Shown here one piece after another: positions 2,226-52,768 of a stretch of DNA of 64,000 nucleotides. Positions within the stretch are counted from its first letter, which is position 1. The number at the start of each line of letters is the position of its first letter. The stretch comes from a virus. Its lineage: Duplodnaviria > Heunggongvirae > Uroviricota > Caudoviricetes. The DNA lies in the IMG/VR virus record IMGVR_UViG_2531839524_000004; one strand, 5' to 3'. The notes under the pieces were generated by a model that worked only from the letters and a program-made list of their open reading frames with translations, was not told the DNA's origin and did no database searches. The position numbers and the translations under genes were made by a program.

Positions 2226-2353
2226 GATGTTTCAGTTTCTTTATCAACCTACTAATTAACCTTTACACCGCAGCCGTAGGCATTTAGGCTATATCACATA
2301 TAAGAAAACAAGTTGTTTCAGACGATAATTATATACGCAAAGGGAACTCTCCA

Positions 2354-3022
2354 ATGACCAAGATCTTTGTGGTTGGCGGCACAAAGGGCGGGCCTGGCAA
2401 ATCCACCGTTGCCCAGCAAATTGCCGTTTGCCTGAAAGTCAAAAAGAAGAAGAAGGTTTATATCACTGATATAGATATTCAGCGCACGACAACAAGCTGG
2501 TGTGAAGACCGTCGACAGAACGAAGACCTTGAGCTGATTCCTTTTGCATACGTTCAGGATGACATCATTAAGCACCTAAAATCGCTTCAGGGTAGAGCTG
2601 AGTTTGTAGTGGTAGATGCTGGTGGCTTTGACTCCGAAATTCAGCGACAAGCGATGCTGATGGCCGACGTTATCATTATCCCGCTGCGTCCTAAGCGTCG
2701 TGATTTGAAATCTTTACGTGACATCGATCCTATTATCGACAATGTTCGTAATGTAAACGATAAAGTGAAGGTCCGCGCGGTCATGAACCAGTGCCCGGCT
2801 TTGCCATCACAAGTGTCTCGCATTTTGGCGGCTAAAGAGATTGTCGAGACGTTTGGCATCGAGTCTGCGCCAGTCAATTTATATAACCGCAACGTCTATG
2901 ATGATGCGGAAGAGTCTGGTCGTTCTATCTTTGAAATGACCGGTAGCGAGCGCGACAAAAAGGCGGAAGCCGAGTTTGAAGAATTTGTAGATTATCTGTT
3001 GAGTCTGGAGGAAGAAGAATAA
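2354..3022 (+). CDS. parA: ParA-family partition ATPase
   Basis: Deviant Walker A GGTKGGPGKST near N-terminus, about 220 aa; followed by coupled small gene. Confidence 0.75.
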   Translation: MTKIFVVGGTKGGPGKSTVAQQIAVCLKVKKKKKVYITDIDIQRTTTSWCEDRRQNEDLELIPFAYVQDDIIKHLKSLQGRAEFVVVDAGGFDSEIQRQAMLMADVIIIPLRPKRRDLKSLRDIDPIIDNVRNVNDKVKVRAVMNQCPALPSQVSRILAAKEIVETFGIESAPVNLYNRNVYDDAEESGRSIFEMTGSERDKKAEAEFEEFVDYLLSLEEEE

Positions 3023-3381
3023 TGTCCATGAAAATGGGTGACCTAGCAAAGCGCAAAGAGCCTGATGCACCGGCTAAGAACACAACTCCTTTGCGCCAAC
3101 CAGTCAGACCACAGGGACGCCCGACTCGTGGCAAAGAGAAAATTAAAAGCCGCACAATGTCACTGGAGGACGAATACTTCGAACTGCTGGAGATGATGAA
3201 GTTCATCCCTCGCTTCGAGAAGTTCACTCGTTCTGACGTGATTCGAGCAGCCATTTTCCATCTGGCAGAGAAGTCACCGCAGGAAATCGAGGACATCGTG
3301 AAATTGAATGAGGCGATCACCGCTGCCGATGTCACGATGCGTACCGATGAAATCAAACGAGAGTTGATGAAGAAAGGTTAA
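3022..3381 (+). CDS. putative partition adaptor / centromere-binding protein (ParG/ParB-like small partner)
   Basis: 119 aa, start overlaps parA stop (TAATG); basic N-terminus; position typical of ParA partner; no direct domain proof. Confidence 0.45.
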   Translation: MSMKMGDLAKRKEPDAPAKNTTPLRQPVRPQGRPTRGKEKIKSRTMSLEDEYFELLEMMKFIPRFEKFTRSDVIRAAIFHLAEKSPQEIEDIVKLNEAITAADVTMRTDEIKRELMKKG

Positions 3382-3386
3382 AAATC

Positions 3387-3417
3387 ATGCATTGGCGCGT
3401 ACATTGCGCCAATGCAT
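3387..3417 (-). terminator. perfect 12-bp inverted repeat hairpin, probable terminator for the convergent minus-strand gene
   Basis: ATGCATTGGCGC-gtacatt-GCGCCAATGCAT; on the minus strand it is followed by a T-run (complement of AAAAAT at 3381-3386). Confidence 0.5.
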
Positions 3418-3433
3418 AACTACAGTGTCAGCT

Positions 3434-4201
3434 TTATGCCGCGCTAACACTATGTTCAGTCCTAACCACCCCAACCTTCACAAAAGGGCTACCGTAGCTT
3501 GGTGGCTTCTTGATTAATTTGCCTACATACAGTTTTCTAATATGCTCATCGGCTATTCTGCCAACAAATTCATAACGTTTTGTGTCGGGGCCAAGAGCTA
3601 TATCCCTTGTAAAGTACTGCTGAGAACCGGCTTTGACCCAGCATTCAATCTGATAAACTTCCATTATCAGCCCACCATATGTAGCGTAGGCATATTTGAG
3701 ATTCTCGTCTCTTGGAACCTTTGCCCATACGCCACGCGTAGCTTCATATAATGCCAGAGCGGACATTCCTGACTTGTAGGTGCTGTTTAGCAGGAAGGCA
3801 AGACCGGCGTGCTCAGGAGCAATTTCAGTTTCCTCTTGCAGCACTAAGTGATGGTAGGCGTCCAGTGATATTCTGCCCATCATGGAACCACTTCCTCGTA
3901 CCTTATTCGTAAGCTCTCCGACCCCCATAAGGTCGATGCATGTCGCCTCAACAAGTTTGGCTGTGGTTTCATCCATACCATGACGAAGTATATCTATGCC
4001 TAATTTTTTATTAGCCAAAAGTTCTTTGATCCGCATGGATTTGGGAGAGTCATCGGGATACTTGATGTGATCGAGACAACGAGTCGATTTGCCTTTTCCT
4101 ATGTAAAACGGTCTTTTCATCTTGTCTTCTGTATCATAGAGACAGTAAACATAGTATTTAGCCTTATCCAATGATCTCGCGTATACCGATAAATCGTCCA
4201 T
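3434..4201 (-). CDS. GIY-YIG-type nuclease domain protein (possible homing-endonuclease-like)
   Basis: N-terminal YVYCLYD...FYIGKGK...R motif typical of GIY-YIG; 255 aa; isolated minus-strand gene. Confidence 0.55.
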   Translation of the reverse strand: MDDLSVYARSLDKAKYYVYCLYDTEDKMKRPFYIGKGKSTRCLDHIKYPDDSPKSMRIKELLANKKLGIDILRHGMDETTAKLVEATCIDLMGVGELTNKVRGSGSMMGRISLDAYHHLVLQEETEIAPEHAGLAFLLNSTYKSGMSALALYEATRGVWAKVPRDENLKYAYATYGGLIMEVYQIECWVKAGSQQYFTRDIALGPDTKRYEFVGRIADEHIRKLYVGKLIKKPPSYGSPFVKVGVVRTEHSVSAA

Positions 4202-4319
4202 TATTGCATCTCTTTGCTACTGACTAATGCGTTCTATTTTACACATAAGTTTTTAATCAATTTAACAGGCTCAAAGTGTAGAGCTTCTGGGCGTCTAAGA
4301 CGACAAGTTAGCCTGCTTC

Positions 4320-4380
4320 TGTATATATAAATAATAAGTAACTTATTAAATATATATACGGAAGCAGGTCTTTTAAAAGA
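4320..4380. repeat. about 60-bp near-perfect AT-rich palindrome; first of two related copies in the window
   Basis: AGCCTGCTTCTGTATATATAAATAATAAGTAACTTATTAAATATATATACGGAAGCAGGTC; left arm identical to 52709..52733. Confidence 0.6.
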
Positions 4381-4484
4381 CACCACCAGAACAACTCCCT
4401 TCCGTTTCCACTTCCAAAAACTGCCACCAGTCGCTATCATCCGCTCATTGTGATAAGTAAGTAACTACCTACCAGGTGAGCCAC

Positions 4485-5225
4485 ATGAGCCAAATCTTTT
4501 TCGATACCATCGACAACGACCAGTACGACTTCATGACAGAGTGGAATACCGCTGTTATGGACAAGTGGGTCGCTGAAAACATTGGTTTGTCGCGCTGTAA
4601 AGACGAGGCTGAACTCTTCGAGACGAAGTGGTTTGATTACCGCGACATGCATCCTCTCATGGCCACCTGTCTTTTTACGGAGGCATACAAACGTCAGTAC
4701 TCAAATATCATGCTGACGCACGGTCGCGAACACTTTGAAACAGCTCCGTTCACCACCGGGTTAAAACGCCTGCCTTATCAGGAGTTGTCGACTGCCAATA
4801 AAACGTCGCTATGGAAAGCACGCCAGTTTGCGGATCGCTATTGCTGCTCATACGACTACTTTATCTCCACCGTTCTTTCCGCAGCTGCACGACGGCTGTG
4901 GGACAAGCTGCCGCGCCCACAGCATTTGTGGCAGCCAGAACTGATTGAGATATTTGAAGAGAAATTAGCCAGACGCGCAACAACCCGTCTGGATGACTCT
5001 CTGGTTAGCTTTAAGCATATGGGAGACATGCAGTTCAACCCGATTCAGGAAAGCTATTTTGAGTGGATTCTGGAGCGTTTGCGCACCATCCCTCGCAGCA
5101 AGCGCATACGCGCAATTTTCTCCGCTATCTGGCTAATGGAAATCGTTCCAGAGCGCCTTATTTCCGCCCACTTTCCAGAAGAACTGGAAGAAGCACGGCG
5201 GTTTATTGATCCCCTATCTAATTAA
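4485..5225 (+). CDS. hypothetical protein
   Basis: ORF with AGGTGA RBS 5 nt upstream of ATG 4485 (track ORF begins at in-frame GTG 4476). Confidence 0.5.
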   Translation: MSQIFFDTIDNDQYDFMTEWNTAVMDKWVAENIGLSRCKDEAELFETKWFDYRDMHPLMATCLFTEAYKRQYSNIMLTHGREHFETAPFTTGLKRLPYQELSTANKTSLWKARQFADRYCCSYDYFISTVLSAAARRLWDKLPRPQHLWQPELIEIFEEKLARRATTRLDDSLVSFKHMGDMQFNPIQESYFEWILERLRTIPRSKRIRAIFSAIWLMEIVPERLISAHFPEELEEARRFIDPLSN

Positions 5226-5268
5226 CTAATACTAGAAAACAATTTGTTTAAAAAACAAAGGAAAGCAC

Positions 5269-6609
5269 ATGACCGAACTTTGCCATACAGGACGCGGGCT
5301 GTCCGAAGAGTTTGATGAAGATTTCCAGAACAGACTGACGGCATATTTTTGTCGTGATCACGAGTTTCTTACTCGTGCGGGAGATCTGGTTGTGCCTAGC
5401 CAATTTGCCAATGCGGCCAATGCCATATTGGTTAATATGGTTTCGGGCTATTACCGTATGTACAAGAGCGCGCCCTCTTCATCTGCAATTCTGGATATGC
5501 TTAAGCGTGCGAAACGCGATAAGACTATCCGTGAGGAACTATTCGCCGATGTTGTTGCTGCGTTTAAGCGCATTCTTGCAGAAAAATTGTCCGATACCTC
5601 GTACATGGTTGACCAGGTATCAACCTTCGCAAAAAGTGTAGCGTTTGATGATGCTCTGATTAAGGCTGCTGAACTGAAAGAGAAAGGCGACTTTCACGGG
5701 GCGATGGCAATCATGGCCAAGGTTCAGCAGATTGGATCGAACGAAGCGACCGGAATCTATGACTACTACACCTCCGCAAGTGAGCGATTGAAAGCGCGTG
5801 AATATGAGGCTTCAGAGGAGTATGTACCAAACAGTATTACAACTGGACTCCCTCTTCTCGATAGGTTGCTGTACCAAAAAGGCTGGGCAAAGCGCGAAAT
5901 GGTGCTCTTCATGGGGTTCGCTAAATCCGGTAAATCGACCGCAATGGGTGAGTTTTCCATAAACGCAACACTTGCTGGCTACAATGTTCTGTATCTCTCG
6001 CTGGAGGTTCACACCACCATTTTATCCGACCGTTTTGATGCAAGATTGTCGGAGACGGAAATGTCCAAGTTGGTGGAACGGCGCGATGAAGTTCATCGCA
6101 AGTTGGCAGAGTTGGGAGCTACGAAGGGTATTGGTAGTTTGTGGGTTGTTGAGCGTCCGTCAGGAAGTATGTCACCGGCAGATCTGGACCGTATGCTTAA
6201 CAGCATGAAAGCCAACGGCATGGTGCCTGACATGGTTGTTGTCGACTACGCAGATTTGATGCGTGCCAGTTATGACCTTCGTGATGATCGCGCCAACATT
6301 CGTAGTATCTACACCGATTTACGTGCTCTTTATGACAAGCATAACGTTGCTGGGATCACGGCATCGCAGACAAACCGTGAAGGTGGCGCGTCAGAAGTTG
6401 CCACAATGATGCACGCTGCCGACAACATCGAAAAAGTACGTATTGCTGACCTGGTAATAACGATCAACAAAACCGAAGAAGAAGAAGCGAAAGGAGAGGC
6501 TCGTCTCTACTTTGCTGGTTCACGTAACCAGCAGGGAGGGATCAGCATTCGCGTTAAACAAAACCTCGAACAAATGCGCTTCATTGAGCGAATCTTAGAC
6601 GTTACCTAA
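5269..6609 (+). CDS. DnaB-like replicative DNA helicase
   Basis: 446 aa; C-terminal RecA-like domain with Walker A GFAKSGKST and DnaB-like architecture; conserved leader AAAGGAAAGCACATG. Confidence 0.8.
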   Translation: MTELCHTGRGLSEEFDEDFQNRLTAYFCRDHEFLTRAGDLVVPSQFANAANAILVNMVSGYYRMYKSAPSSSAILDMLKRAKRDKTIREELFADVVAAFKRILAEKLSDTSYMVDQVSTFAKSVAFDDALIKAAELKEKGDFHGAMAIMAKVQQIGSNEATGIYDYYTSASERLKAREYEASEEYVPNSITTGLPLLDRLLYQKGWAKREMVLFMGFAKSGKSTAMGEFSINATLAGYNVLYLSLEVHTTILSDRFDARLSETEMSKLVERRDEVHRKLAELGATKGIGSLWVVERPSGSMSPADLDRMLNSMKANGMVPDMVVVDYADLMRASYDLRDDRANIRSIYTDLRALYDKHNVAGITASQTNREGGASEVATMMHAADNIEKVRIADLVITINKTEEEEAKGEARLYFAGSRNQQGGISIRVKQNLEQMRFIERILDVT

Positions 6610-6690
6610 AAAATAAGCGTGGAGAACACCTCCACGCTTGATTCATTGGTGAAACAACTTTTCTTTTGCCAAACCACAAAAGAAAAACAC

Positions 6691-7872
6691 ATGAGCCTTT
6701 ATGTTATATCAACATTTAGGTTGGTCACAATATTGCCTGTTAAAAGTGGAATTATCGTGAGCGAGCTGAAAGAGCTAATTACCGAATTAGATTTTGAACA
6801 ATGGTTGGATACTGAAGGTATCGTTTATCGACGTGGAGGCGTGAGTACTCGCGGTCGTGAAGTGAATATCAAGGAGTGTCCGGTATGTGGCAGCTCCAAC
6901 TGGAAGGTATATTTCAATCTGACCAGTGGCGTCGGTAAATGCTTCGCTGGTGATCATCCCGAAGAGATTCAGTTCAATAAGCTGGTCTTCCTCAAGCACT
7001 ACAGCGGCAAATCACGACGACAGTTCGAGGAATATGTGCAGAACGCCCTTCTTTCCCAGGGGTGGGCACCAAAGAAAGAAGAGCTAGTGCTTGCAAGCAC
7101 AGTCGAGTTAGAGGGGCCAGTTGCACTCCCTCGTCATTACGAGCTTCCTATAGATGGTCGTCTTCCAGACTATCTGGTTGAACGAAACATATCGCCTGAA
7201 ATGGCAAAGTATTTTGACCTACGATACTGCGTCGAAGGCAAGCACGCCTATGTAGATCCGTATACAGATCAGGTTAAAGGACAGATATTCGATATGCGAA
7301 TACTGATACCGGTTTACGATCTGGATGGGGTAATGAAGACATTTCAGGGACGAGACATTACCGGTACAGCAGAACGTCGCTACCTCTTTCCTATGCAGCT
7401 TCCAGCTTCAGGTAAGTTTCTCTACAACGGCCATAATGCAGTCGGCAAACAGACGGTAGTTGTCTGTGAGGGGGCGTTCGATGTTATGGGGGTCAAACGA
7501 GCTATTTTTGACGAAGAAACATTACGTGATTACGTGGAACCAATAGGAACGTTCGGGATGCATCTATCTGGCAACACCACTCAGGATGCAGAAGATCAGC
7601 TGGGCGCGTTCCTGACGCTCAAGGCGCGTGGATTACGTAATGTGATCATGATGTGGGATAGTGAAAAGCAAGCTATACGCAACACTATGGCCGCAGCTAG
7701 GCGACTCACAAGTATTGGCCTTAATGTCAAAGTTGCGTGTTTGGGCGAGGAAGGACTCGACCCCGGCGATGCGACACCGGGGCAGATTATCAAAGCCTAC
7801 TATTGCGCAAAACCTTATTCACGACAGCTTGAACTCTTAAGCAAGGTGAAAGGCATTGCAGCACTAGTTTGA
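6691..7872 (+). CDS. DNA primase (zinc-ribbon plus TOPRIM)
   Basis: CPVCGS...C...H zinc-binding motif and TOPRIM-like VVVCEGAFDVMG; start chosen at ATG 6691 preceded by conserved AAAGAAAAACAC leader. Confidence 0.7.
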   Translation: MSLYVISTFRLVTILPVKSGIIVSELKELITELDFEQWLDTEGIVYRRGGVSTRGREVNIKECPVCGSSNWKVYFNLTSGVGKCFAGDHPEEIQFNKLVFLKHYSGKSRRQFEEYVQNALLSQGWAPKKEELVLASTVELEGPVALPRHYELPIDGRLPDYLVERNISPEMAKYFDLRYCVEGKHAYVDPYTDQVKGQIFDMRILIPVYDLDGVMKTFQGRDITGTAERRYLFPMQLPASGKFLYNGHNAVGKQTVVVCEGAFDVMGVKRAIFDEETLRDYVEPIGTFGMHLSGNTTQDAEDQLGAFLTLKARGLRNVIMMWDSEKQAIRNTMAAARRLTSIGLNVKVACLGEEGLDPGDATPGQIIKAYYCAKPYSRQLELLSKVKGIAALV

Positions 7873-8901
7873 ACCAGTATTAGTCACGTAAACATTGACC
7901 GAAAATGATTTAACTTCTGTGTTGAAGTTGTCAGTCATTACCGCGAGGTAGGCATTCTTGGTATCTCTGAATTGCTTCAGGATGATTTGAACGTTATCGG
8001 TGCAAACAAACGAGGTAGCCAGATTGCCTCCTTTCTCTGAAAAATCCTTTAGGAAAGTGCAGTCAATTTTGCCATCATTAGCGGTGAAGGTGGCATCATC
8101 ACCCTGCCAGGTAAATGTTGCGTTAACGCCTTTATCAATGGATTTAGCAATAAGTCGCTGAGTGGAGGATTTTGCTTTAGATCTTGCTGCTGATGGTTGG
8201 TATTTACCGCTTTCTTTTAGTTCTGCAATGTAATCACAGCCATTTTTATCTTCTTTATCGCAAGCTGCCTGATAAAGCTCAGCTGCTTTTTTATAATCTT
8301 TTTTAACCCCTTCACCATACTCATACATAATGCCAAGATTCGCCAATGCAGATGCACTGCCTAGTTCGATTCCTTTTTTATAATACTCTATTGCCTTTTT
8401 GTAGCTTTTTGGCACGCCTGCGCCAACATAATATAACTGTCCTAGATATGACGCAGATTCAGGGTCGCCAGCCTCTACTGCAAGTTTGTGATATTTCAGG
8501 GAAAGTTTTTGGTCTTTCTTACCCGCAAGTCCTTTATGATAAATAACACCCAGATTGTGATAAGAGTTGCCTCCAGCTGCATCACCAGCTTTCTTAAAGA
8601 GTTCCTCTGCCTTTTTGAAATTTTTATCAACCCCATACCCAAGGGCATACATTATACCTAGAGCATTAAACGCTTCTTTGTTCCCCTTAGAAGTCGCCAG
8701 TTCAAGCCATTTTCTGGCTTCATCGTAGTTTTTTTCGACACCATGAATACCTTTCATATAGTCGATACCTAAAGCACTCTGTGACTCAACGTCGCCTGCT
8801 TTTGCCGCATCGATCAGCTTTTGTATTTCATAGGCATGTGCACTCCCCGAAACAAGTAATAGCGACAACATAAAGAAAGATATTGGTTTGAAATGTTTCA
8901 T
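7864..8901 (-). CDS. secreted Sel1-like repeat (SLR/TPR-like) protein with extra C-terminal domain
   Basis: N-terminal signal peptide MKHFKPISFFMLSLLLVSGSAHA; multiple repeats with A-G-x-x-Y-x-x-G pattern typical of Sel1 repeats. Confidence 0.7.
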   Translation of the reverse strand: MKHFKPISFFMLSLLLVSGSAHAYEIQKLIDAAKAGDVESQSALGIDYMKGIHGVEKNYDEARKWLELATSKGNKEAFNALGIMYALGYGVDKNFKKAEELFKKAGDAAGGNSYHNLGVIYHKGLAGKKDQKLSLKYHKLAVEAGDPESASYLGQLYYVGAGVPKSYKKAIEYYKKGIELGSASALANLGIMYEYGEGVKKDYKKAAELYQAACDKEDKNGCDYIAELKESGKYQPSAARSKAKSSTQRLIAKSIDKGVNATFTWQGDDATFTANDGKIDCTFLKDFSEKGGNLATSFVCTDNVQIILKQFRDTKNAYLAVMTDNFNTEVKSFSVNVYVTNTGSN

Positions 8902-46219: not shown

Positions 46220-47089
46220 ATGAACTTTACCAAACTGACTGACCCCCTGAAACTTGCCACCGATCGTCTCATTGGATTTAAGCCAGAACCATATGAGTTG
46301 CATGAAGGTCATGGTGTAGCTACTGAAAGTATTTACAAGATGGTCGATCAGTTTCATGAACTCTTCCAGCATCCGAGACGCGTTATGCCGACACCAGAGC
46401 TGCTTCGTCTCCGTGCAAGCCTGATTCATGAAGAAGCTGTAGTGGAAGGTATTCCAGCCGCAATGAATGGGGATATTGAGCAACTGCTGGATGCAATGGC
46501 CGACTTTTTATACGTTGGTGTTGGTACGATGGTCGCCATCAAAGGTGGTATTTCTACCGGCATGACCTATTACACGCAGGAACAGAGCATTGATCGCTTT
46601 ATGCAGACAATTTTTGTGCCCGGTAACACTGTTTTCGATGATATGGCAATGCCATTTCAGGAAGCTCGTGAGGCGTCATATATGCTCGAAGAGCTGGCAG
46701 ATAAACTTGAGAACAAGACTGTTAAGGATTCTGAGCTGATTCAGGAACTGCGCCGTGTCATGAACAAAATCTATGTGGCGTGCATGATGACCTATCGACT
46801 GGCTGATTTCCTCGGTATCAATGTAGTCGAGCTGGTTGGCGAAATTCATCGGTCTAACATGACAAAATTATGGCCTGCTGATGTCGAGGAACGTCGCCAG
46901 GCTGTGGCCAACTGCAAATACGACTCTTCAGACCTGGGATTTCGCCATGCTGATGGTACCGATAAGATGATCGGTTTTCGAATTTCCGATGGAAAGATTC
47001 TGAAGTCTCCAACCTATAGTGATGTCGATTTATCCTCCTTTGTTGAGCAAGCTAAAGCCTCAGCAATGTACGGAATGATCAAAAAATAA
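46220..47089 (+). CDS. putative MazG-like nucleoside triphosphate pyrophosphohydrolase
   Basis: All-alpha candidate with acidic EEAVVEG...DIEQLLDAMADFLY pattern reminiscent of MazG/HisE; weak, by eye. Confidence 0.35.
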   Translation: MNFTKLTDPLKLATDRLIGFKPEPYELHEGHGVATESIYKMVDQFHELFQHPRRVMPTPELLRLRASLIHEEAVVEGIPAAMNGDIEQLLDAMADFLYVGVGTMVAIKGGISTGMTYYTQEQSIDRFMQTIFVPGNTVFDDMAMPFQEAREASYMLEELADKLENKTVKDSELIQELRRVMNKIYVACMMTYRLADFLGINVVELVGEIHRSNMTKLWPADVEERRQAVANCKYDSSDLGFRHADGTDKMIGFRISDGKILKSPTYSDVDLSSFVEQAKASAMYGMIKK

Positions 47090-47156
47090 TTGTAGGTAGT
47101 TATCTATCTATGTATATTGTGTTAGCGCGTTAAATTCCTGAAACAACTATTCGTTT

Positions 47157-47182
47157 TGGTGGCCTATGGCCACCATTTTTTT
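47157..47182 (+). terminator. rho-independent terminator
   Basis: TGGTGGCC-tat-GGCCACCA followed by TTTTTTT. Confidence 0.75.
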
Positions 47183-47259
47183 ATCTATCTGGCCTTGTTC
47201 CCTCAATAAATGTAAACTCACGCAATGAATAAGTGATTACTTATCTTTGTGAGGTTTTT

Positions 47260-48363
47260 GTGTCACTCCTTTTGAATCGTGAGCATACGAACGGTCAGGT
47301 AACAAACGCATCGTATGCAAAAGTTATTGAGACGGTGCTTAAAAGCGGCGTGCAGGCTGATGATCGCACAGGCACTGGTACTTTAAGCACCTGCTACGTT
47401 CCCTCTTACTACATGCTTACTGGTGGGACTGTGCCGCTTATTTCTGGAAAGGCGGTAAATCTTAAGCCACTGCTTGTCGAACTTGAGTGGTATCTGAAAG
47501 GCACGGGCAACATCCAATTTCTCAAGGATAACGGCGTTAAGATTTGGGATGCATGGGCCGATGAGAATGGCGATTTGGGGCCAGTTTACGGTAAGCAGTG
47601 GCGTCGATGGGAAGATACCCGCATCGTGAGCCATAGTGAATATCTGAGCAAGATCGCTACTTTCCGTGAACGCGGGTACAAAGTCGAGGGATACCTAGGT
47701 ATCAGTGAAGATCGCGTAGTGCTGTCCCGTGAAATCGATCAGCTACAGCGTATTGTCGATACACTGCGCACGAACCCTACCGATCGTCGCATCATGCTTA
47801 ACGCATGGAACGTAGGCGAGCTTGAGGATATGAAACTGCCACCTTGCCACTTTGTCTTCTCTTTGTGGAGTCGTGAGCTTGATTTTGAAACCCGTTTAAC
47901 GATGGCAACTGACATTGGTCTTCAACACAGTCGCCTCGGTTACGAGTCTATCTACACCAAGATGCTATACGATCTGGAGATGGACGGCAGTGTTACTGAA
48001 GCTGAACTGGATGAACTTGGAATCCCCAAACGCATCCTCAACTCCTGCCTCGTACAGCGTAGCGTAGACACTTTTGTTGGTATGCCATTCAATATTGCTG
48101 GCTATGGCATTCTCACTCATTTTCTCGCGAAGATTACGGGTCACATGGCCGGTGCATTTGTGCATTTTGGCTTTGACGTGCATTTGTACAATAACCACAT
48201 GGAAAGTGTGCGTGAGCTAATGCAACGACAGGCTCCAGAGCATTCAGATCCGGTCGTTATATTCCCTAATGAATGGTCTGAGCTGGATGATTTCAAATGG
48301 GACGAGATTCTTATTCTTGGCTATGCCCCTCTACCGTGGATCAAGGTTCCAGTGGCGGTGTGA
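47260..48363 (+). CDS. thyA: thymidylate synthase (ThyA) with two in-frame insertions
   Basis: DRTGTGT, WADENGDLGPVYGKQWR, catalytic LPPCH, MPFNIA motifs; GTG start at 47260 after GAGG RBS; about 100 aa longer than E. coli ThyA. Confidence 0.85.
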   Translation: MSLLLNREHTNGQVTNASYAKVIETVLKSGVQADDRTGTGTLSTCYVPSYYMLTGGTVPLISGKAVNLKPLLVELEWYLKGTGNIQFLKDNGVKIWDAWADENGDLGPVYGKQWRRWEDTRIVSHSEYLSKIATFRERGYKVEGYLGISEDRVVLSREIDQLQRIVDTLRTNPTDRRIMLNAWNVGELEDMKLPPCHFVFSLWSRELDFETRLTMATDIGLQHSRLGYESIYTKMLYDLEMDGSVTEAELDELGIPKRILNSCLVQRSVDTFVGMPFNIAGYGILTHFLAKITGHMAGAFVHFGFDVHLYNNHMESVRELMQRQAPEHSDPVVIFPNEWSELDDFKWDEILILGYAPLPWIKVPVAV

Positions 48364-52094: not shown

Positions 52095-52688
52095 ATGATT
52101 GCAGCCGAAAAAATCAAACAGCGAAAGCGCGACAACTCTCTTCGTGACCTCTGGAGAACACCTGACTGGCTGTTTTCTGCCATTCAACGTTATCTTGGAG
52201 TGACATTTGATGTTGACGTTGCCTGCAACAAGGACAATGCAAAGCTGCCTAATTTCATAGGCGTTGAGCGTGATGCTTTGAAATCTGAATGGGGACAGCC
52301 AGGTACAATTGCCTTCCTCAATCCACCCTACTCCAAAATCTCCCCCTGGATTGATGCGGCTATACGTGAGCAGGCTCCCGGAGTTACAACAGTGATGCTA
52401 ATTCCTCAATCCCTAGATACAAAGTGGTATGAGCGTGCAACAGAGTGTGCGAATGAGACGATTATTCTGTCTGGTGGCCGCGTAGCGTTTGTCGAGCCTG
52501 ACGTAAATCTGGGTCAGGTAGAAGTAAACATCAACCCAGGTGGCAGTATGCTCGTTGTTTTTCGAGGATTCTGTCAGGACGCTGGGCACTCTATAAGCAA
52601 GATCCCTTTGGACGTCATGAAAAGTCTGGGAGGGTATGATCCTGCGAATGTGATCAGGAAAAAAAGACCATCAAAGAAGGCTGCTTAG
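52095..52688 (+). CDS. phage-type N6-adenine DNA methyltransferase (Dam-like)
   Basis: Catalytic motif FLNPPYS (DPPY/NPPY class) and small size (197 aa) typical of phage Dam family. Confidence 0.7.
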   Translation: MIAAEKIKQRKRDNSLRDLWRTPDWLFSAIQRYLGVTFDVDVACNKDNAKLPNFIGVERDALKSEWGQPGTIAFLNPPYSKISPWIDAAIREQAPGVTTVMLIPQSLDTKWYERATECANETIILSGGRVAFVEPDVNLGQVEVNINPGGSMLVVFRGFCQDAGHSISKIPLDVMKSLGGYDPANVIRKKRPSKKAA

Positions 52689-52708: not shown

Positions 52709-52768
52709 TAGCCTGCTTCTGTATATATAAATAACTACATATTAATTATTAATATACGGAAGAAGGCT
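52709..52768. repeat. second copy of AT-rich palindromic element
   Basis: AGCCTGCTTCTGTATATATAAATAA identical to 4320..4344; partner arm TTAATATACGGAAGAAGGCTG degenerate. Confidence 0.55.

Follow-up and report, generated by a model that had tools for sequence, protein, structure and literature searches.

The window analysed here is a stretch of 64,000 nucleotides from a virus of the class Caudoviricetes (IMG/VR record IMGVR_UViG_2531839524_000004). Near its start, a list of ATG-to-stop open reading frames (ORFs) includes a coding sequence for a protein of 255 amino acids on the minus strand (3434..4201). It is the only minus-strand gene between a pair of genes in the position of ParA and ParB and an operon that encodes a DnaB-like helicase and a primase. 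The gene is genuine and its product is a two-domain GIY-YIG nuclease of the PD-T4-3/CMoRE family. It is almost certainly a relative of this anti-phage restriction enzyme that travels as swappable cargo of a phage-plasmid, and no homing endonuclease.

The protein, which begins with KYYVYCLYDTEDKMKRPFYIGKGKSTRCLDH, is a 100% match to RefSeq WP_000342417.1, named 'LEM-3-like GIY-YIG domain-containing protein'. The ORF is no chance reading frame, because it has 288 homologues (120 of these are listed, at 50-100% identity) and matches 1,781 clusters built at 50% identity. The catalytic domain (3890..4165, minus strand) was recognized by Pfam as PF22945, LEM-3-like GIY-YIG (30.1 bits against a gathering cutoff of 27, E 5.5e-7), over amino acids 32-104, and it is the sole domain that Pfam recognizes in the protein. 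The N-terminal motif set comprises YYVY (17-19), FYIGKG (32-37), R41, H45, E85 and N99. The catalytic residues do not vary in an alignment of 57 subfamily sequences. In a family alignment of 227 sequences, which takes in the two chains of CMoRE in the form given by the HMMER alignment, Y17, Y19, Y33, G35, G37, R41, H45, E85 and N99 are kept in at least 221 sequences, CMoRE included. A first-pass annotation had described a stand-alone GIY-YIG nuclease gene on the minus strand at 3434-4201; the exact ORF, the PF22945 match and the intact catalytic set bear this out, and the alignments show no loss of catalytic residues. From end to end, the protein fits PHROG 5356, a phage family whose function is unknown (E 1e-99), and a search of NCBIfam with the protein gave zero matches.

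PD-T4-3, since renamed CMoRE, is a type IV restriction endonuclease made up of one protein. It binds DNA with 5-hydroxymethylcytosine (5hmC) or glucosyl-5hmC and degrades it, and it protects Escherichia coli about 10^5-fold against phages T2, T4 and T6 by direct defence rather than abortive infection (PMC12923530). The N-terminal GIY-YIG domain has an unusual 'GIYxY-YIG' motif (Y17, Y19 and Y31) along with Arg and Glu as catalytic residues, and 5hmC is bound by the C-terminal domain. A lid formed by a 15-residue acidic loop, inserted between alpha2 and alpha3, keeps the enzyme autoinhibited; mutation of four consecutive acidic residues in this loop led to cutting of normal DNA and to toxicity (PMC12923530). 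CMoRE cuts with a CN11/N9G pattern, and its function depends on a tetramer, organized as a dimer of dimers. A homologue from Capnocytophaga, PD-T4-3Capno, is 48% identical to PD-T4-3, is modification-dependent, and additionally cuts the DNA of phage Mu (PMC12366544). PD-T4-3 was also one of just two systems active in a native clinical isolate, and in a survey of clinical Enterobacteriaceae DefenseFinder lists PD-T4-3 and PD-T7-5 in SSU5-group phage-plasmids of E. coli and Shigella.

The homology between the window protein and CMoRE covers both domains. The PADLOC model for PD-T4-3 (PDLC04031) matches residues 11-231 of the protein to profile positions 11-238 of 256 (E 1.3e-23, 81.9 bits). When phmmer was run against all PDB chains, the only matches were the four CMoRE entries (9u7u_A, E 2e-15; 9u75_A, E 3.5e-15). 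The two chains named are labelled '5hmC specific restriction endonuclease PD-T4-3', and the alignment to them runs over amino acids 12-230. The domain search proposed by the first-pass annotation thus leads, through PF22945 and PADLOC PD-T4-3, to the very alternative that the annotation had mentioned in passing, namely that GIY-YIG-like domains also occur in defence effectors. An AlphaFold model built from the 57-sequence alignment is confident (predicted local distance difference test score, pLDDT, 86.9; predicted template-modelling score, pTM, 0.82). With this model as a Foldseek query against the PDB, the top four matches are PD-T4-3 structures (E about 2e-11, probability 1.00), and GIY-YIG domains of UvrC rank below them. 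The global TM-score to the PD-T4-3 structures is low (0.35-0.39), which we ascribe to the two domains being oriented differently across the flexible linker.

At the level of residues, the three-tyrosine motif of CMoRE (Y17, Y19 and Y31, with its Arg and Glu) has its counterparts in Y17-V-Y19 and Y33, with R41 and E85. The alignment also shows that V92 and R80 of CMoRE are kept as V84 and R73, and that L96 of the dimer interface is replaced by C88, an invariant Cys. Overall identity to CMoRE in the family alignment is 33%, that is, about a third relative to the enzymes of E. coli APEC O1 and O157:H7 (PDB 9U7U, 9U7Z, 9U75 and 9U8D; PMC12923530). The clearest difference from these enzymes lies in the alpha2-alpha3 loop within the catalytic domain, which is eight residues shorter here and has DD where CMoRE has four consecutive acidic residues. 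Between H45 and I58 the window protein reads IKYPDDSPKSMR, a short and non-acidic sequence of 12 residues with two acidic residues and a net charge of +1, whereas the equivalent stretch of CMoRE has 20 residues, of which five are acidic, and contains DDDD or DDDE. This short form is the commonest among the relatives retrieved (179 of the 227). The authors of the CMoRE study state that 'most' members have the acidic loop and make no such claim for all (PMC12923530), so we regard the gap as a difference within the family and not as grounds for exclusion from it. The Capnocytophaga enzyme, with which we compare the window protein by its published description, is also a divergent member; it is modification-dependent at 48% identity to PD-T4-3, which shows that function is retained across considerable sequence distance, and its cutting of Mu DNA, which has a modified adenine, shows that specificity can drift within the family (PMC12366544).

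The C-terminal domain (approximately amino acids 112-245; 3467..3868, minus strand) is homologous to the modified-cytosine-sensing domain of CMoRE, so that this half of the protein is of the CMoRE-fold sensing type. In structural comparisons the predicted fold resembles YTH domains, EVE/THYN1 bound to 5-methylcytosine (5mC) DNA, ASCH domains, the N-terminal domains of McrB, and VcaM4I, which is dependent on 5hmC or 5mC. These scores are marginal, and the model suggests a very distant PUA-like origin of the sensing domain. The likeness of the reader fold to those of type IV enzymes with PUA-like readers (McrB N-terminal domains, VcaM4I, and fusions of EVE, YTH or SRA domains to nucleases) is weak and comes from the predicted model, and these enzymes differ in the nuclease fold, which is HNH, PD-(D/E)xK or McrC in place of GIY-YIG.

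The element that carries the gene can be recognized from its backbone. Across positions 2300-6700, identity is 98-99.5% to Escherichia phages PhiR41_1 and CMS-2020a, as well as to over 100 non-mobilizable E. coli plasmids of about 110 kb, and about 82% to Salmonella phage SSU5; from these similarities, the window is an SSU5-like phage-plasmid. To the left of the nuclease gene, a ParA-type ATPase (2354-3022, plus strand) matches the Pfam families MipZ, AAA_31, CbiA and ParA and is annotated as ParA in PhiR41_1, Cyrano and SSU5. It is followed by a gene for a 119-aa protein (3022-3381, plus strand), which we place as ParB by position and which has zero Pfam matches. To the right lies the replication operon (4476..7872, plus strand), identified from Pfam matches and from annotations in relatives. 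It starts at 4476 with a gene of unknown product (249 amino acids) and continues with the DnaB-like helicase (5269-6609, plus strand; Pfam DnaB_C) and the primase (6619-7872, plus strand; Pfam Toprim and DNAG_N).

Between these conserved flanks, the nuclease gene is the only gene of an exchangeable cassette of 930 bp (3382..4311), which consists of a terminator, the gene itself and a 110-bp upstream region. In alignments with Cyrano, SSU5 and PhiR41_1, homology breaks off precisely with the stop codon of the ParB-position gene (3379-3381) and resumes at 4312, the left arm of a palindrome, and the breaks against Cyrano and SSU5 delimit the cassette. The earlier suggestion of an isolated insertion between the partition pair and the helicase operon therefore stands. 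The repeat search found no direct repeats or IS-like ends (IS, insertion sequence) flanking the cassette, and transposition was ruled out as the insertion mechanism on this basis.

The gene was also said to be flanked by a hairpin and a palindrome. Both exist, but the former belongs to the gene and the latter to the backbone, whatever the cargo. The hairpin (3381..3417) is an inverted repeat with 100% complementarity whose GC-rich stem at 3387-3417 contains a 12-bp perfect repeat and extends to 16 bp when folded on the minus strand. There it folds with -26.6 kcal/mol (z -4.4; range for the hairpin -3.4 to -4.4) and is followed by GAUUUUU. Given this strong minus-strand stem and the U-tract behind it, we take the hairpin to be the intrinsic terminator of the nuclease gene, which thus forms an autonomous transcription unit with a terminator of its own. 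Its U5 corresponds to A5 at 3381-3385 on the plus strand and overlaps the stop codon of the ParB-position gene. A consensus terminator scan missed the hairpin at 3387-3417; folding revealed the strong stem and the U5. The hairpin is seen solely in genomes that have the nuclease cassette. By contrast, the AT-rich palindrome (4312..4368; 28-nt arms, 89% complementary, fold z about -8) is conserved in Cyrano, SSU5, PhiR41_1 and a plasmid with a near-empty site, whatever the cargo, and is a backbone element at the right edge of the cargo site, outside the insertion. A promoter scan of the 110-bp region upstream of the nuclease gene gave no convincing sigma-70 site; the only match, 9 of 12 positions, falls inside the backbone palindrome.

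The palindrome probably is a regulatory element of the backbone. A second, diverged copy (81% identical) at 52711-52768 immediately follows the gene for an N6-adenine methyltransferase (52095-52688), and the next gene on the plus strand begins after it. An operon starts behind each of the two copies, so the palindrome may be an operator or other regulatory element shared within the phage-plasmid backbone.

Relatives that lack the nuclease gene show what else can occupy the site between parB and the palindrome. In E. coli plasmids with flanks about 97-99% identical to the window, the cargo is varied and includes known or candidate defence genes: a DUF2971 protein (PADLOC candidate PDC-S31, E 3e-41), a DUF2971 protein together with a homologue of PD-T7-5 (PADLOC PD-T7-5, E 1.4e-139), and a KAP-family P-loop NTPase (PADLOC PDC-S49, E 5e-22). 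Further occupants have no Pfam or PADLOC match. These are a 352-aa protein (locus L015, 1143-2201, minus strand), a pair of 246 and 136 amino acids (locus L017, 1116-1856 and 1849-2259, plus strand) and a pair of 214 and 136 amino acids (locus L003, 2581-3625, plus strand). SSU5 itself has two uncharacterized genes and a DUF2971 gene at the same site. Because they alternate with genes for PD-T4-3-like nucleases, PD-T7-5, DUF2971 proteins and the KAP NTPase, the unmatched occupants could be candidates for defence genes that have so far gone unrecognized. A near-empty site, in which the stop of the parB-like gene is followed by about 31 nt and then by the palindrome, was recovered with a synthetic empty-site query in just 8 of 805 plasmids; one such junction is that of NZ_CP113488.1 (locus L020, 1380-1480). 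Unrelated cargo fills the site in the other relatives examined that lack the gene. The comparison of presence and absence suggested by the first-pass annotation thus does find relatives without the gene, but mostly with other, defence-type cargo in its place.

The cassette has also moved between backbones. In plasmid CP099103 the backbone is about 80-85% identical to the window while the cassette reaches 99-100%, and in the flanks the identity falls off over 150-300 bp. This contrast indicates recent lateral exchange of the cassette between diverged backbones. In a separate case, a piece of the phage-plasmid with the ParB-position gene and the nuclease cassette has been captured, at 99.3% identity, on conjugative IncF plasmids such as pCPWW7-IncF of E. 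coli (NZ_CP075717.1, 22099-23272; locus L005). The captured piece has an IS3 element on one side and, on the other, a helicase/methyltransferase pair resembling a restriction-modification system.

The nuclease gene occurs in 156 PLSDB plasmids, in 134 of them at 99% identity or more. Of 5,426 complete E. coli genomes, 107 (about 2%) have it, always on a plasmid and never in the chromosome. The wider family is large. A HMMER search of 1.84 billion cluster representatives returned 1,781 clusters (50% identity) at E<=1e-3 and 632 at E<=1e-10, mostly of about 240-260 amino acids and with alignments over the whole length. In Providencia and other bacteria, close homologues (72-78% identical) stand alone as chromosomal genes, and one with 56% identity is found in a Shewanella chromosome. 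The chromosomal homologues have no recurring partner, as expected for a single-gene system, and at times lie near IS elements or near Fic, RelA/SpoT-like or integrase genes.

Taken together, we consider it likely that the gene encodes a modification-dependent restriction nuclease carried as lysogenic-conversion cargo of an SSU5-like phage-plasmid. By analogy with CMoRE, the C-terminal domain would bind DNA with bulky modifications, most likely the 5-hydroxymethyl- or glucosyl-hydroxymethyl-cytosine of T-even phages, and the N-terminal GIY-YIG domain (Y17, Y19, Y33, R41, H45, E85 and N99) would then cleave the bound DNA with a divalent metal. In this scenario, modified genomes of incoming phages would be destroyed directly, and the unmodified host chromosome and the phage-plasmid would be spared. 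The lysogen, and hence the phage-plasmid itself, may be protected in this way against phages with hypermodified DNA, and the site would act as a one-cassette cargo site in which defence genes are swapped by recombination through the conserved flanks.

A type IV enzyme would be suicidal in an element that hypermodifies its own cytosines. This possibility was considered and dropped, as the ThyA homologue of the window (47233-48363) passes the equivalog cutoff for thymidylate synthase and adjoins a dihydrofolate reductase (DHFR) gene; for the same reasons the DNA of the element presumably contains unmodified cytosine. At 376 amino acids the ThyA homologue is unusually long; it matches the profile in three to four separate stretches and thus contains insertions. 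The gene before it encodes 289 amino acids that include a MazG/PRA-PH-type NTP pyrophosphohydrolase domain, and the two genes (46220-48363) belong to a nucleotide-metabolism block near DHFR and NrdAB.

The first-pass annotation favoured a free-standing homing endonuclease. Such an enzyme would cut the cognate site of SSU5-like genomes that lack the gene, and repair would copy the gene into them with its flanks. Homing enzymes of the GIY-YIG type have a catalytic domain linked to sequence-tolerant DNA-binding modules (zinc finger, NUMOD or helix-turn-helix) and target the gene-less allele. With I-TevI and SegA-G of T4 the window protein shares the N-terminal GIY-YIG module and the setting of a stand-alone gene between conserved phage genes, and several observations fit such an enzyme: the intergenic position in a phage genome, the polymorphism of presence and absence, the near-empty site in a few plasmids, and the combination of a nearly identical cassette in a backbone of about 80-85% identity with decaying flanks, which resembles co-conversion. 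Distant full-length homologues in jumbo phages are moreover annotated as homing nucleases. However, the C-terminal half is predicted to be a modified-base sensor of CMoRE type, and no zinc finger, NUMOD or helix-turn-helix module was found there in Pfam or NCBIfam even at E<=10. The PHROG 'homing endonuclease' family 314 matches the GIY motif with an E value of just 0.28. In addition, alternative cargo predominates over empty sites in the gene-less relatives, and chromosomal homologues are abundant as solitary genes across many genera. Homing is thus a very improbable explanation of this gene. It is harder still to credit a structure-specific nuclease of repair or replication (UvrC-, Slx1- or LEM-3-like) that serves the adjacent replication module. 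The names given by Pfam and RefSeq and the proximity to the helicase and primase genes would be in keeping with such a role, but the gene can be dispensed with, as most relatives with this replication operon have unrelated genes in its place. It also lies on the opposite strand with its own terminator, and the C-terminal domain of its product is of the CMoRE type.

A closer competitor to cargo that acts on T-even phages is a modification-dependent nuclease of the same family with another target, for instance the N6-carbamoylmethyl-adenine type of modification found in Mu, or competing plasmids and phage-plasmids, and with another safety mechanism, since the acidic lid is absent. The low identity to CMoRE would allow for this, as would the short, non-acidic loop shared by most sampled members and the ability of PD-T4-3Capno to accept unrelated modifications. 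The sensing domain, if it is distantly PUA-like as the model suggests, would belong with readers of 5mC, 5hmC and N6-methyladenine alike. Yet every tested member of the family restricts T-even phages, and the sequence gives no pointer to another substrate, so we regard a different target as fairly unlikely.

Some of our results weigh against restriction of T-even phages as the function of the cargo. Identity to the characterized enzymes is only about 33%, and literature searches for experiments on the protein, also under WP_000342417, found none. The acidic loop by which CMoRE is autoinhibited and its host protected is missing, so that self-protection must work otherwise or the activity must differ. 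The sole published base contact is made by a main-chain atom of Y127 in CMoRE, which aligns to E123 here, and a contact of this kind makes specificity unreadable from sequence. Finally, the neighbourhoods of the chromosomal homologues are just loosely defence-like.

The window protein is a divergent member of a recently characterized family, and earlier reports cover both the family and its occurrence in SSU5-group elements, so nothing categorically new is described here. What the analysis adds is that a gene annotated as hypothetical or as LEM-3-like GIY-YIG now comes with a specific prediction, namely that SSU5-like elements may protect their hosts against hypermodified phages of T-even type. 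This prediction bears on forecasts of host range in phage therapy and on the persistence of such elements in clinical lineages. A compact cargo site has also been delimited in which known defence genes (PD-T4-3-like and PD-T7-5) alternate with uncharacterized ones. As a natural relative of CMoRE without the autoinhibitory loop, the protein could help to explain how self-toxicity is avoided, and enzyme-based detection of 5hmC may be a use for it.

A more far-reaching proposal is possible, if rather doubtful. The short-loop clade could be a functionally distinct branch, with another modified-base specificity, another means of sparing its own DNA, and a sensor that is a divergent PUA-like domain (YTH/EVE/ASCH) and not the 'new fold' that was reported. 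In that case the site between parB and the palindrome would be a single-cassette defence hotspot, with the 352-aa, 246-aa and 136-aa occupants as candidates, and this site of SSU5-like phage-plasmids would be useful for finding new systems.

Virulent jumbo phages of Serratia, Pectobacterium, Klebsiella, Pseudomonas and Pantoea likewise have genes for relatives of the protein, at about 25-36% identity (gp009 of Serratia phage Moabite, locus L008 2968-3732, and 16 other records). Most of the Serratia and Pectobacterium records are full-length two-domain proteins with intact catalytic motifs. Full-length relatives of about 28% identity from phages of Serratia, Pectobacterium and Klebsiella, with the motifs intact, bear annotations as homing or GIY-YIG endonucleases. 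An alternative is that these jumbo-phage proteins are CMoRE-like nucleases directed against competing modified phages.

The neighbouring genes at 1023-1421, 1422-2198, 3022-3381 and 4476-5225, together with the Sel1 protein described below, gave nothing significant with PADLOC. Two further positions near the nuclease gene differ among relatives. Upstream of parA, at about 850-2300 of the window, lies a second variable site with two plus-strand ORFs (1023-1421 and 1422-2198) that have no Pfam or PADLOC match. Cyrano, CP099103 and NZ_CP023851 have at this site a GNAT toxin of the KacT type and a DUF1778 antitoxin on the opposite strand, and the window and a relative (locus L019) are non-homologous there, with 30-48% column identity. 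Just after the primase lies another isolated minus-strand gene (7864-8901), whose product of 345 amino acids looks secreted and contains five Sel1 repeats. The gene in this position is a plus-strand hypothetical in PhiR41_1, Cyrano and others and a minus-strand gene in SSU5, and the position may be a further cargo site.
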